A stretch of DNA of 64,000 nucleotides. Source: Novosphingobium sp. (GTDB taxonomy: Bacteria > Pseudomonadota > Alphaproteobacteria > Sphingomonadales > Sphingomonadaceae). The notes below the pieces were generated by a model, which saw nothing but the letters and a program-made list of their open reading frames with translations, was not told where the DNA came from and did not search any database. The first letter of the stretch is position 1. The number at the start of each line of letters is the position of its first letter. The position numbers and the translations under genes were made by a program. This document shows, piece by piece, positions 19,626 through 24,253 of the stretch. Location of the stretch: positions 6,330 through 70,329 of the forward strand of contig JACKKV010000007.1 in the NCBI GenBank assembly GCA_024236235.1, in the 5' to 3' direction.

Positions 19626-19699
19626 GGCCCGATGGCGGAGTGGTGACGCAGCGGACTGCAAATCCGTATACGCCGGTTCGATTCCGGCTCGGGCCTCCA
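19626..19699 (+). tRNA. tRNA-Cys (GCA)
   Basis: Hand-folded cloverleaf. Acceptor GGCCCGA/TCGGGCC, anticodon loop CTGCAAA, T-loop TTCGATT, encoded CCA. Confidence 0.9.
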
Positions 19700-19903
19700 T
19701 GCATATTGAGGTGCAAAGGCGTCTCCGGGTATTGGCGCCCAGAGTGGCGCAACCCCGCGCCATTCCGCGAGATCATCTTACCAGAAACCGTCTCTCCTGA
19801 GACGTGTATTGGCTCGGTAATGGGCCGCAAATGCGTAAAGTCTCTGCGGCGATTTCTGCATCGACGGATTTGACGTTACCCGCGTCTCTGCTCTCTGTGG
19901 TGG

Positions 19904-21757
19904 TTGGACTGCAGGGACAAGCGATGGGCGGCTTGCGCCATGCAATACTGTCGAAAATGGAGCCAAGCATTCATCTCGAAACCTGCCGTTCACACAGGTA
20001 TTCAACCACGGGCGAAATTTGGGCCGGTTGCGGACCTGCAGCTATTGAACGAAATAAGGTGGAAAGCAGCTGTTCAGCGCGCGAGCCTAAAGCTGACCGC
20101 ACGTTCGCGGCAGCTATCTATTGGAGCCTTTGCGCTCCACCCGCTGGCCTACACTTATGACAAGGCGGGTCGGGTCACTCAGCTGGTGGAGGATGGCTGG
20201 TCGAGCGAATATGAATATGACCAGGCGGGCAACCGCACCCTGATCCGCTACCCGCACCAGGGCTTGCTCGGCAGTCCGACCAACGACGGCTTCCATCTCA
20301 CCTATGACTATGACCTGCTGGGCCGCCTTACCAAGGTGCGGGAGAATGGCGCGGCCTCGGGCATCGGCGTGCTGGCGTCATACAGCTACGACGAGCTGTC
20401 GCGGCCGACCTTCGTTGCGCTTGGCAACGGCACGAGCCGGACGGTGACCTACCGGCCGGATTCGAGCGTGGGTACGCTGGCGCTGGATCTCGACGGCGCG
20501 GGCGCGGCCAACGACAATCTCTACACGCTCGCCTACAATCAGATCCCGCAGATCGCATCGGTGACCACGAGCAGGGCGGCGTTCGACTGGAACGGCTATA
20601 GCGATGTCAATCGCGGCTATGCGGCGAACGGGCTCAACCAGTATACGCAATCGGGCACGAAGACGCTCGGCTATGACGACAATGGTAATCTGATCTCAGA
20701 CCAGACCTGGACATTCGGCTATGATGCGGAAAACCAGCTGACCAGCGCCAGCGCGACCGGCGTGGCATTGGCCTATCGTTACAATGCCCTCGGTCGGATG
20801 GACCGGCGGCAGCTCAATAGCGCCACTGCCACCGACTATCTGTATGACGGGCAGAGCCTGATCGCCGAACACGCCGCGGGCGCCAATCCGCAGGGCAAGC
20901 GCTATGTCCATGGCACTGGCGTTGACAGTCCGATCGTCGAATATACCCGCCAGGGCGACGGGACGTATACGCGGCTGTGGTATGCGGCTGACTTCAGGGG
21001 CTCGATCGTCGCGACGACCAATGATGCGGGAACGACGACCGCGATCTACGCTTATGGCGATTATGGCGAGCCCAATACGCAGGGCGGCCCCGCGTTCCGC
21101 TACACCGGCCAGCGGCTCGATGCCGACAGCGGCCTCTACTACTACAAGGCCCGCTGGTACTCGCCCAATCTCGGCCGCTTCCTCCAGACCGATCCGATTG
21201 GGACGAGCGACCAGCTCAACCTCTATGCTTATGTGGCGAACGATCCTATCAATCTGATAGATCCGACCGGGATGACCACATATGGACCGGATATCGGATT
21301 TCCGGCCTCTCGGGGTTTGTTAGACCCGCTGCCGCTGGACCAGCCGTTGATCCCGCCTCTGAGCGACTTTAACACAGGCCCAACTCGATCGCTGAATGAG
21401 GCAGAATTTGAGATACTCAATACTGAAATCCCAAGTTCTACCTTAAATTCCCTGACCTTACACGATGGCCTTCCGCCGGGATTTGACCCTGCTGGTACTG
21501 AGGCAACCACTCTTTATGACCATATCTATTTTAGGGACGGGATAGATGATTTCTCTACAAGCACCTATCGAATCAGGCTATTAGCTGAAGAGTCCTATCA
21601 TGCTTACCAATTCGACACAGGAATGACATATCGTAGTTACGCAATAGCTAGTATTAATGGATATGCGAATAATCCGTACGAGATAGAGGCAAAGGATGTG
21701 GCTGATCTAATAACATATACGTATTGCTCACTAGGTGGCGCTGCCAAAGGCTGTTGA
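19904..21757 (+). CDS. RHS repeat-associated core protein, N-terminally truncated (orphan-type), with a DUF4157-like C-terminal toxin domain
   Basis: YD repeats run from about 20140 (YTYDKAGRVTQL, YEYDQAGNRT, YDDNGNL). The core ends in YYYKARWYSPNLGRFLQTDPIG...DPINLIDPTGM at 21274. The 160-aa CT domain follows. The first 80 or so codons of the ORF do not look coding. Confidence 0.8.
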   Translation: MDCRDKRWAACAMQYCRKWSQAFISKPAVHTGIQPRAKFGPVADLQLLNEIRWKAAVQRASLKLTARSRQLSIGAFALHPLAYTYDKAGRVTQLVEDGWSSEYEYDQAGNRTLIRYPHQGLLGSPTNDGFHLTYDYDLLGRLTKVRENGAASGIGVLASYSYDELSRPTFVALGNGTSRTVTYRPDSSVGTLALDLDGAGAANDNLYTLAYNQIPQIASVTTSRAAFDWNGYSDVNRGYAANGLNQYTQSGTKTLGYDDNGNLISDQTWTFGYDAENQLTSASATGVALAYRYNALGRMDRRQLNSATATDYLYDGQSLIAEHAAGANPQGKRYVHGTGVDSPIVEYTRQGDGTYTRLWYAADFRGSIVATTNDAGTTTAIYAYGDYGEPNTQGGPAFRYTGQRLDADSGLYYYKARWYSPNLGRFLQTDPIGTSDQLNLYAYVANDPINLIDPTGMTTYGPDIGFPASRGLLDPLPLDQPLIPPLSDFNTGPTRSLNEAEFEILNTEIPSSTLNSLTLHDGLPPGFDPAGTEATTLYDHIYFRDGIDDFSTSTYRIRLLAEESYHAYQFDTGMTYRSYAIASINGYANNPYEIEAKDVADLITYTYCSLGGAAKGC

Positions 21758-21758
21758 T

Positions 21759-22226
21759 ATGAAAAAACTCAAACTTTCCATTGTGATTGTATATTTCATT
21801 GCAGGTTGCAGCTTATCCACGTCTTTTGACCGAGAGTTTCGGGATTTCTATTTGAAACCGGGTGAGGAGCGCGCTGAGGAGTTCGCGGCATATCCTATTG
21901 AAAAACAATATGAAATTTACATGTGGGGCGTTCGTAACTTTCATCCTTCTCCTTTGCATTTGGCGGAGGTGATGGGGAAGGGCGGTATGCCTTCAGCGAT
22001 CTATGTTGCTAATAGGATGGCTGGCACAAGTGATCCTGTGGAACTTAGTAGTGCTATTGTCGTTTTTGAATGGATGCAGCTTCATGGAATTCCTGTATGT
22101 GACAACAAGGAAATTGTCGAGGCAATGGCCCGTGGACTTGTGAAGTCAAAAGGCACTATTCATGAGAAGTCATATCGTAATATTCTATTTAGAACATGTC
22201 CCATACAGGGTATTGGGAAGATATAG
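21759..22226 (+). CDS. Candidate immunity lipoprotein for the RHS toxin tip
   Basis: It starts 1 nt after the RHS stop. Lipobox: MKKLKLSIVIVYFIAGC. AT-rich like the toxin tip. I recognise no family. Confidence 0.55.
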   Translation: MKKLKLSIVIVYFIAGCSLSTSFDREFRDFYLKPGEERAEEFAAYPIEKQYEIYMWGVRNFHPSPLHLAEVMGKGGMPSAIYVANRMAGTSDPVELSSAIVVFEWMQLHGIPVCDNKEIVEAMARGLVKSKGTIHEKSYRNILFRTCPIQGIGKI

Positions 22227-22318
22227 CCCATTTCCCAATCATTATTTTGTTGCCGCTTGTTCCTATTTCGAATGCGCGGTCGTGATCCTAAAAACCGAAA
22301 CTATCGTGGGGTGGGCGC

Positions 22319-23108
22319 GTGAAACATATAGGACAAGCACTGCTGTTGTTCTTCCTGGCCATGGCGGCACCGCTTGCGCCGGCGTTCGCCCAGAGTACCG
22401 TCACCTACACCTATGACGCGCTCGGCCGCCTCGTACGCTCGGAGAACAACGGTACCAGCACTGCCGACAGCACCTACACCCTCGATGCAGCGGGCAACCG
22501 CACCAACGTCACCGTCACCGGCTCGCCGTTCCCGACCTTTTCGATCGACAGCACAGCCGTCACCGAAGGCGGAACCGCGATCCTGACCGTCACCAAGGGC
22601 GGCGCGACGATCGACACGCTCACCGTCAATTACGCGAGCGCCGACGGCACCGCGAGCGCGGGATCGGATTATACCGCAACCAGCACCCAGATGCTGACCT
22701 TCCTCGCCTCCGACAGCAGCAAGACGATCGCCATTCCCACCACTGACGATCTGTTGATCGAAAACACCGAGAACTTCACCGTGACGCTGTCCGGCAACAG
22801 CGCGGGCTCGGCCATCGGTCAGGCCACTGGCACGGTTACGATCAACGACAATGACGCGACCAGCTTCGCCATTTCCGATGCTTCGGTCACCGAGGGCGGA
22901 AACCTCGTCTATACCGTCACCAAGACGGGCAGTGTGGCCGCGAACATCAGCTATGCCACCGCTGATGGCACGGCGACGGCCGGGTCGACCATCTCGACCG
23001 CGCAGGGCTCCGGCACGATCAATGATAACGATGTGCCGCCTGTATCCTTTGCGATATCGGCTGCGCCCACTGTTTCGGAAGGCGGCAACCTCGTTTACAC
23101 GGTCACCT
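22319..23108 (+). pseudogene. N-terminal fragment of a secreted YD-repeat/Calx-beta protein, interrupted by an IS remnant
   Basis: GTG start, signal peptide ALLLFFLAMAAPLAPAFA, YD repeats, then Calx-beta repeats (TADGTASAGSDYTATS...FTVTLSG). The second repeat is internally shortened. The third is cut after NLVYTVT. Confidence 0.75.
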
Positions 23109-23552
23109 GTCCCCCGTCAGCACCAATGGCACAGATTTGAGGTTGTGATTTAAGGAGGATTTGGGCTTCGTTGCAGTGACGAAGGAACGAAGATGAAGCC
23201 CAAATCCTCCAATGCAAAATCGCCGACCAAGGCCCCCGCGGAACGGGTGGTAAAGGACATCCGGCGGCAGACCAGGCGCCACTTCTCGGCCGAGGACAAG
23301 ATCCGCATTGTGCTGGAAGGCCTGCGCGGCGAAGACAGCATCGCCGAGCTGTGCCGCAAGGAAGGCATCGCGCAGAGCCTGTTTTACACCTGGTCGAAGG
23401 AGTTCATGGAGGCCGGCAAGCGCTGGCTGGCTGGTGACACCACCCGTGCCGCAACGACCGTCGAAGTGCAGGATCTACGCCGCGAAGCCCGCGCCCTGAA
23501 GGAATGCGTGGCAGACCTGACGCTGGAGAACCGCCTGCTGAAAAAAAGCATG
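23109..23552 (+). mobile_element. IS3-family insertion sequence remnant (left end plus orfA only)
   Basis: The OrfA-like HTH protein starts at 23193 (RRHFSAEDKIRIVLEGLRGEDSIAELCRKEGIAQSLFYTWSKEF...LENRLLKKSM). It ends just after the A7G slippery run (23541-23548). No orfB and no right end are present. The left boundary is inferred from loss of the Calx-beta reading frame. Confidence 0.75.
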
Positions 23553-23885
23553 AGCCGGGCTTCAACAAGGTTCTGACCGCAACGGACGCGCGCGGGAAGG
23601 TCACCGACTACGCTTACGATCCGGTCACCGGCGATCTGGCCTCTGTCACCGCACCGGCGGCCACGTCCGGCGGTACGCGCCCGCAAACGACCGTCAGCTA
23701 CACCAGCTTCACTGGCGCGGGTGGCATGCCGTCCTTCACCATGCCGACCTCGGTCACCAGCAAGATCGACGCAGCGAACAGCGTGACGACGACAACGGCT
23801 TATAACGCGGCCAACAAATATGTGCCGCAGTCGAGCACGGTGGACCCCACAGGCCTCAACCTGACTTCGACCTTCTCCTCTGCCC
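23553..23885 (+). pseudogene. Internal YD-repeat (RHS) fragment downstream of the IS remnant
   Basis: The frame of the 23504..23980 ORF reads FNKVLTATDARGKVTDYAYDPVTGDLASVT...TTTAYNAANKYVPQSSTVDPTGLNL. Similarity decays after about 23885. Confidence 0.6.
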
Positions 23886-24177
23886 AACTTGCGATTTCCC
23901 GTGTCCGATTCACAAGATATCGGTCGCTGAATTTGCTAAGGTGCGCAGACTCCCGGCGGTCTCGCGATTTGCACTCATGAATGCAGACGTCAAACTCCCG
24001 TTATTTTCCCGTTTGCTCGGGAATTTGGCCAAGAGACCGGCGATCAAAGTGGTCTTCACGCCTCCAGCTTTTTCCTGAATTGTTCGCCCGTTGGCGCTGT
24101 GCATGCAGGAAGTTTGCCCTTGTGCGACAGAAAGCGTTGCACCGCGCGGCGAAGCTGACTAGAGAGCCGCCCCGGAC

Positions 24178-24253
24178 GCCGCTTTAGCTCAGTCGGTAGA
24201 GCACATCATTCGTAATGATGGGGTCAGAGGTTCGAATCCTCTAAGCGGCACCA
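24178..24253 (+). tRNA. tRNA-Thr (CGT)
   Basis: Hand-folded. Acceptor GCCGCTT/AAGCGGC, D-arm GCTCAGTCGGTAGAGC, anticodon loop TTCGTAA, T-loop TTCGAAT, encoded CCA. Confidence 0.9.

Follow-up and report, generated by a model that had tools for sequence, protein, structure and literature searches.

The question raised by the right-hand part of an RHS locus in Novosphingobium sp. (contig JACKKV010000007.1 of assembly GCA_024236235.1, positions 6,330 to 70,329, a stretch of 64,000 nucleotides hereafter called the window) is whether the AT-rich tip of the RHS gene and the small lipoprotein gene next to it form a toxin and its immunity protein, and if so what kind of toxin this would be. The reading that we favour, and hold to be moderately probable, is that 20144-22226 is a horizontally acquired orphan RHS C-terminal toxin/immunity cassette, in which a gluzincin-type peptidase tip acts in the periplasm and is blocked by the lipoprotein. 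The RHS core (DPxG...DPTGM, an autoproteolysis motif) would release a tip of ~160 aa, and the last 123 residues of this tip would constitute a minimal gluzincin-type metallopeptidase of the DUF4157 / PVC-metallopeptidase (PF13699 eCIS_core) superfamily. The metal ligands would be E105, H109 and E136 in place of H, H and E, with E106 as the putative catalytic base of the peptidase activity, and in the recipient's periplasm the toxin would attack an envelope target. A small, all-helical protein with a conserved pair of cysteines that is predicted to lie in the outer membrane (Ser at +2), the co-transcribed lipoprotein would bind the toxin inside the periplasm of producing cells and their kin, and so block it. 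In the present genome the module is probably a stored cassette that lacks a delivery domain, and the immunity gene is most likely the part in current use.

The limits of the tip can be placed precisely. The RHS-associated core terminates with DPINLIDPTGM at 21274 (DPIGTSDQLNLYAYVANDPINLIDPTGM), just before the variable tip, which spans 21275-21754 (160 aa), contains LLAEESYHAYQF and is closed by a TGA stop codon at 21755-21757. The GC content is 0.60-0.65 in both flanks and falls to 0.39-0.47 in GC windows across 21350-22250. An earlier reading of this DNA, made from the letters alone (the original prediction), had placed the end of the core, the AT-rich tip of 160 aa and an EESYH motif at 21587-21601, and all three are found where it put them; the codons of the motif are GAA GAG TCC TAT CAT, with the GAA of E105 at 21587-21589. 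The tip begins with a proline-rich linker, and in many of its relatives the toxin domain follows directly on DPxGL with no linker at all. Upstream of the core, the RHS repeats of the open reading frame (ORF) also match TIGR01643 (2.2e-11).

The affiliation of the tip is provided by its relatives. An exhaustive phmmer search with the tip against 1.84 billion cluster representatives (50% representatives, cut-off E<=1e-3) returned the tip itself and 93 relatives with 30-43% identity (best E 2.6e-12, P0003), and the likeness to DUF4157 thus goes beyond chance. The matches extend over tip residues ~37-160 and lie at the extreme C-terminus in all 93 relatives, whose lengths range from 85 to 2759 aa; one further relative, the toxin of locus L013, came from a later metagenome scan and at 44% identity is the closest to the tip. 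When the 94 members of this set (the tip and its 93 relatives) were each scanned singly against Pfam, 89 matched PF13699 (DUF4157, now eCIS_core; best E 6e-13), with scores of 32.8 bits for P0003 and 46.8 bits for P0011; the gathering score is 22 bits, the nearest clade scores 12-22 bits and the tip lies below the threshold. RHS_repeat is present in 17 of the 94, and PT-HINT, TcdB or DUF637 in others. Neither a word-indexed homolog search nor a scan of a genome collection gave any match to the tip, and it matches no sequence in the PDB. By transitive homology, and not by a direct model match, we assign the tip to the DUF4157 / PVC-metallopeptidase superfamily, in which it is divergent. The Tox-MPTase families that had been suggested for checking gave nothing, as no such model matched the tip and none is among the 25 most often matched of the 27 families found in its relatives.

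The consensus of the family is R.LT..EK..L.PYIP...LD.A.LH.G.VPWY......GIT.GN.IYFR.G.Y...T..G..LLGHELVHVGQY..GMT...Y.W....GY..NPYE..AY, usually with a cysteine at the end. A cysteine is found within the last 12 residues in 63 of the 94 members, and C151 and C160 of the tip are candidate disulfide partners; conserved cysteine pairs occur in both the toxin and the immunity proteins. Tip residues 31-160 were modelled with AlphaFold2 from a 44-sequence alignment, and the model has a mean predicted local distance difference test score (pLDDT) of 94.7 and a predicted template modelling score of 0.89. It contains three strands (31-34, 47-50 and 53-56 in model numbering) and helices at 67-84, 89-95 and 104-122, with EESYH in a long helix and the invariant Glu of NNPYE at the opening of the final one, and the modelled topology corresponds to the minimal zincin core described for PVC-metallopeptidases (PMC3482391). 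The family profile matches the effector domain of VgrG2b (PDB 6H56) with an E value of 1.1e-4 over profile positions 4-89, across RxLT..E and HExxHxxQ.

These comparisons place the tip among toxins of a kind that is already known, a point that the original prediction had overlooked: RHS C-terminal PVC-metallopeptidase toxins were described in 2012 (PMC3482391), and a DUF4157-annotated periplasmic effector with a periplasmic or lipoprotein immunity protein in 2019 (PMC6899460). The PVC-metallopeptidases have an HExxHxxQ...E signature and a minimal zincin core of three strands and three helices, and a C-terminal PVC-metallopeptidase toxin after RHS repeats was noted in a Pedosphaera protein, with no immunity family listed for it (Zhang et al. 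2012, PMC3482391). The tip resembles these in signature, core and RHS-linked C-terminal position, as well as through the relatives that match the model, but differs in having Glu for the first His, a sub-threshold Pfam score and a linked lipoprotein immunity family. VgrG2b, from a type VI secretion system (T6SS), is a DUF4157-annotated gluzincin with ligands H935, H939 and E983 and an immunity gene immediately downstream (PMC6899460; PDB 6H56); its C-terminal domain is toxic in the periplasm only, and its immunity protein is periplasmic and is a lipoprotein in Enterobacteriaceae (Wood et al. 2019, PMC6899460). The domain has a solved structure and no known substrate (PMC6899460). The window module shares with the VgrG2b and Tpe1-Tpi1 T6SS pairs the predicted metallopeptidase type and an adjacent gene for a periplasm-exposed immunity protein, and E136 of the tip corresponds to E983 of VgrG2b. 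The carrier is a VgrG protein in the one case and an RHS protein in the other, HExxH of VgrG2b is replaced by EExxH, and the tip domain is shorter, with 27 residues between H109 and E136 compared with 44 between H939 and E983.

Few unexplained domains are as widespread as DUF4157 in contractile-injection and polymorphic toxin systems. Most of its described members are N-terminal in effectors of extracellular contractile injection systems (eCIS), for which a role in processing or loading the eCIS toxins has been proposed (PMC8213781, PMC3482391). It could therefore be argued that the domain in the window is not a toxin but a peptidase that processes or releases another effector, and that the lipoprotein is unrelated to it. 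We consider this extremely improbable. The domain is C-terminal in the window tip, as in all 93 relatives, where it lies after the RHS DPxGL release site with no toxin domain beyond it; a homologous lipoprotein gene follows the domain in five independent loci, frequently with start/stop overlap; there are no eCIS genes among the window ORFs that were sampled; and the C-terminal RHS-linked versions were themselves called toxins by Zhang et al. (PMC3482391).

The metal site of the tip departs from that of most of the family. The family signature is HExxHxxQ...E and the tip has EExxHxxQ...E, the other four positions being kept. Among the 94 aligned sequences, conservation is complete for E106 and H109 (94/94 each); Q112 is conserved in 93/94, E136 in 93/93 and A139 in 92/93, all of which are present in the tip, and it agrees with every column that is at least 90% conserved except position 105. 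That Glu replaces the first His of HExxH, as had been claimed, is confirmed by this column, in which E105 is aligned with His in 87 of the 94; Glu is present in six (the tip, P0044, P0054, P0060, P0063 and P0088) and Arg in one, and 53 further short family members all have His. The change from His (CAY) to Glu (GAR) takes two base changes, and the single-step neighbours Q, D, N and Y are not seen at position 105. The same GAA codon is found in independent metagenome assemblies, with no variant there in runs X1, X3, X7 and X12, and the Glu is therefore not a sequencing error; one contig (L010) is 100% identical to the window over 3467 nt.

The Glu forms fall into separate lineages of a neighbour-joining tree. 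P0054, P0060 and P0063 group together in a single clade, the tip and P0088 each occupy a long branch of their own, and P0044 (EELFH) is nearest to P0036 and P0065 (HELYH). Other active-site residues change together with position 105, although these counts carry no correction for phylogeny: all six Glu forms have A, T or V at 104, where 70 of the 87 His forms have G; A, S or T replaces V110 in five of the six; and all six have K, Q or I instead of Y140. The ratio of nonsynonymous to synonymous substitutions (dN/dS) is 0.12-0.26, with dS no lower than 0.67, across the EExxH toxin domains of two other loci (L009 and L007), so that EExxH is being maintained in one lineage or more and is not simply decay. 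The recurrent, co-varying EExxHxxQ...E variant is new, as is the delineation of the compact C-terminal sub-family (~120 aa). Within it, the natural HExxH/EExxH pair of P0036 (135 aa) and P0044 (103 aa) offers a compact system for the effect of a Glu-for-His replacement on the metal choice and activity of a zincin.

In the literature consulted, EExxH as a metal-site motif was found only for the ZIP8 and ZIP14 transporters (SLC39A8/A14), which carry EEXXH where other ZIPs have HEXXH and transport manganese, an activity that is abolished by reversion to HEXXH (PMC10457451). The change is the same first-His-to-Glu replacement in an HExxH metal-binding helix, but these are transporters of unrelated fold and they serve as an analogy for metal preference only. 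Motivated by this analogy, we raise the speculative and decidedly unlikely reading that the EExxH forms are a metal-switched sub-type of zincin toxin, with a one-His, two-carboxylate site that would take Mn2+, Fe2+ or Co2+ instead of, or besides, Zn2+; the co-varying changes at 104, 110 and 140 would contribute to the switch, which the family would have made at least twice. If this were true, the toxin could keep working where the target periplasm is poor in zinc, or its substrate chemistry could be altered.

A different account of the same residues is that the EExxH tip is a pseudo-enzyme which binds and sequesters an envelope target and is toxic without catalysis. This would fit with the lack of any substrate found even for VgrG2b, and with the way in which the active-site neighbours shift together in the Glu forms, including the replacement of Y140 by K or Q. 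We nonetheless regard it as very improbable, since E106, H109, Q112 and E136 are invariant in all six Glu forms, which would be unexpected had catalysis been abandoned.

EExxH toxins also occur in paralogous arrays that have no RHS repeats (L009, 1-6124, and genome contig L007, 4001-7437). The first of these contains three EExxH paralogs, each followed by a lipoprotein gene of ~160 aa, and the second contains one EExxH toxin followed by four tandem lipoprotein genes, likewise for proteins of ~160 aa. The toxins of both arrays share an N-terminal segment (MDIMHKLMGDLPEVVKELAMPTLAREFGPFLELYKELRH...) that could possibly be a delivery or adaptor domain.

The second component of the proposed pair begins one base past the toxin stop codon, at an ATG at 21759. 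The protein opens with MKKLKLSIVIVYFIAGC, in which a signal peptide (21759-21806) is followed by the lipobox I-A-G-C, with Cys17 at 21807-21809 and Ser at +2; the AT-rich, lipobox-bearing ORF of the original prediction, said to start 1 nt past the stop, is thus present as described. Its further claim that this would be a periplasmic lipoprotein immunity protein is supported by homologs located after toxins elsewhere. One lies after an HELVH family toxin (L002; BLASTP 2e-14), one after an RHS protein in a Lysobacterales metagenome-assembled genome (MAG; L011), one after an RHS protein of >975 aa in a Gammaproteobacteria MAG (L012), and one after the closest relative of the tip (L013; 44% identity, HELIH). 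All four have a signal peptide and a lipobox-like cysteine, and overlap with the toxin stop codon is frequent. C114 and C147 (window numbering) are common to five of six aligned immunity proteins, the L013 protein lacking them. These exported immunity proteins, the cysteines near the C-terminus of the toxin and the periplasm-only toxicity of the VgrG2b C-terminal domain together suggest that the site of action is periplasmic.

The immunity family has no match among Pfam models or PDB sequences, in keeping with the view that it is uncharacterised, and direct Pfam, NCBIfam and PADLOC scans were empty even at E<=10; in the word-indexed homolog search the protein found only one copy, 99% identical. 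Designed PPR proteins in the PDB were considered as relatives and rejected as an artefact, as the matches were sums over repeats with no single stretch significant. A single-sequence AlphaFold2 model is all-alpha (pLDDT 72.5), and its Foldseek neighbours are generic designed helical repeats only. This linked lipoprotein immunity family, which had neither a Pfam nor a PDB entry, is new and is now defined. Contig L010 shows how the signal of such a protein may escape notice: the gene caller reported no more than the final 84 codons of the immunity ORF there (P0150; window 21972-22226), although the DNA is identical to that of the window. The lipoprotein signal can therefore go unrecognised in automatic annotation.

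What the cassette can do in its present genome depends on the rest of the RHS gene. Although the ORF is called from 19904, similarity to RHS proteins has an abrupt onset at ~20144 (full-length RHS homologs start at 20144-20168 in tblastn), only the last 440-580 residues of homologs of 1072-1413 aa align to it, and tblastn finds no RHS-like sequence upstream of 20144 in any frame. From these alignments we conclude that the gene is 5'-truncated and lacks a delivery domain, which the original prediction did not recognise.

Several observations weigh against a working periplasmic toxin and should be set beside the evidence above. The N-terminal 630-850 residues of the homologs are missing, the RHS ORF carries neither a signal peptide nor a PAAR domain, and there are no T6SS genes among the window ORFs sampled, the others in that sample being housekeeping genes, such that the toxin as encoded is probably not deliverable. 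The tip has no match among Pfam, NCBIfam or PADLOC models even at E<=10, and the DUF4157 zincin-like character originally proposed for it is borne out by 89 of the 94 family members and not by the direct Pfam scan. A Foldseek search of the toxin model against the PDB gave nothing significant (best E 0.49); the top three entries are zincins, but 6H56 is not listed. There is no diverged ortholog of the window tip, and thus no estimate of selection on the tip itself. Homology of the immunity protein to the lipoproteins of the L007 clade, the second EExxH clade, found no support (BLASTP E 0.018-30; hhalign probability 0.3%). Low-level RNA counts in favour of the module, with exact-match, low-depth contigs over 20093-21589 and 21980-22470, parts of the RHS fragment, tip and immunity gene, in all four metatranscriptomes from a single biofilm study, but RNA contigs of such low depth could include DNA carry-over. 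Finally, H935A abolishes the toxicity of VgrG2b (PMC6899460), and loss of the first His can therefore inactivate the enzyme.

Taken further, these points lead to the proposal that the module is a decaying relic. It would be pseudogenised, with the His-to-Glu change, the 37-aa linker and the departures from the consensus all reflecting relaxed selection on a toxin that cannot be delivered, and if anything still works it would be the immunity gene only, guarding against neighbours with live versions. The truncation of the RHS gene at 20144, with insertion sequence (IS) and YD fragments adjoining, speaks for a relic; the tip is off the majority residue at ~35 columns and under every Pfam threshold, the effect of H935A in VgrG2b tells in the same direction, and a form of the locus with an empty site is found in the same communities. 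We judge this proposal to be rather unlikely. The ORF runs intact through 617 codons, position 105 is the only column of at least 90% conservation at which the tip differs from the family, and the AlphaFold2 model is a confident one. Moreover, the replacement at 105 is specifically Glu, the only one that is recurrent in the family, and it is under purifying selection elsewhere. Orphan RHS cassettes are also present in another locus (L008), and such cassettes are re-usable through recombination.

The module also resembles the orphan rhs-CT/rhsI cassettes of enterobacterial rhs loci, which share the 5'-truncated rhs gene with core, tip and immunity gene, the host-atypical GC content and adjoining IS remnants. 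They differ in that there is no full-length rhs gene upstream in the window, where the island stands alone between two tRNA genes. Most likely the cassette is either stored or in decay, and the local biological weight of the module is therefore small.

Table 1. Coordinates of the RHS locus and adjoining features in the window.
Feature	Coordinates	Strand	Evidence or remarks
RHS ORF	19904..21757	+	617 codons, intact; ends in tip of 160 aa
RHS/YD-repeat shell, C-terminal part alone	20144..21049	+	Pfam RHS_repeat (PF05593) 2.4e-12; tblastn
RHS-associated core, DPIG...(18 aa)...DPTGM	21050..21274	+	TIGR03696 (Rhs_assc_core) 7.9e-26, ORF residues 383-457
Pro-rich linker, tip residues 1-37	21275..21385	+	Most relatives without counterpart; relatives align from residue ~37
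Putative toxin domain, DUF4157/PVC-metallopeptidase type, tip residues 38-160	21386..21754	+	Homologs, AlphaFold2, profile match to 6H56
Active-site helix motif E105-E106-S-Y-H109-A-Y-Q112	21587..21610	+	Column counts; family consensus HELVHVGQ
E136 in NNPYE, predicted third metal ligand (gluzincin type)	21680..21682	+	93/93 members; start of last helix
Putative immunity lipoprotein, 155 aa	21759..22226	+	Homologs after family toxins; lipobox
N-terminal fragment of Sec-exported YD protein (signal peptide, YD repeat, two Calx-beta), truncated	22319..23140	+	Calx-beta 2.8e-18, RHS_repeat 1e-5
IS3-family OrfA remnant	23193..23576	+	HTH_Tnp_1 6e-11; multi-copy, contig depth 10-100x flanks
Short YD-repeat fragment	23504..23980	+	RHS_repeat 5e-4; tblastn
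tRNA-Cys (GCA), left island boundary	19626..19699	+	ARAGORN
tRNA-Thr (CGT), right island boundary	24178..24253	+	ARAGORN

The cassette lies within a 4.5 kb island (19700-24175) that consists of RHS fragments, the immunity gene and an IS remnant, placed between two tRNA genes. The segment at 22319-23980 was probably once a full-length YD/RHS gene that has been cut at the IS3 OrfA remnant. In one DNA run (X7) and three RNA runs (X12, X25 and X27) position 19699 is joined to 24176 through 13 nt (ATTTGAAGATGGT), and this junction, from related samples, is an empty site in a relative. The ends of the island have no flanking direct repeats, and a scan for promoters and terminators gave counts at chance level. 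The window sequence is present in activated-sludge, wastewater, sediment and biofilm metagenomes. An ENA metagenome contig (L001) matches the window to ~22360 with one single-nucleotide polymorphism (I100L in the immunity protein) and then continues into unrelated sequence, and either strains differ just past the immunity gene or this contig is chimeric.

Other arrangements of related tips were encountered during the searches. The orphan RHS array of L008 (624-2146) has, in its first RHS fragment, a different metallopeptidase tip of HEFGH type, and the lipoprotein that follows this tip is weakly similar to the window immunity protein (BLASTP 3e-4). What follows the EELFH toxin P0044 in the same array is instead a protein of 77 aa that has two transmembrane segments. 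In two Methylophilus-like contigs (L004 and L005, 5001-5804), stand-alone proteins of ~120 aa belonging to the DUF4157-type sub-family are located amid housekeeping genes (YjbQ and an M23 peptidase), and each of these is followed by a 96-aa lipoprotein rich in Ala, Pro and Glu.

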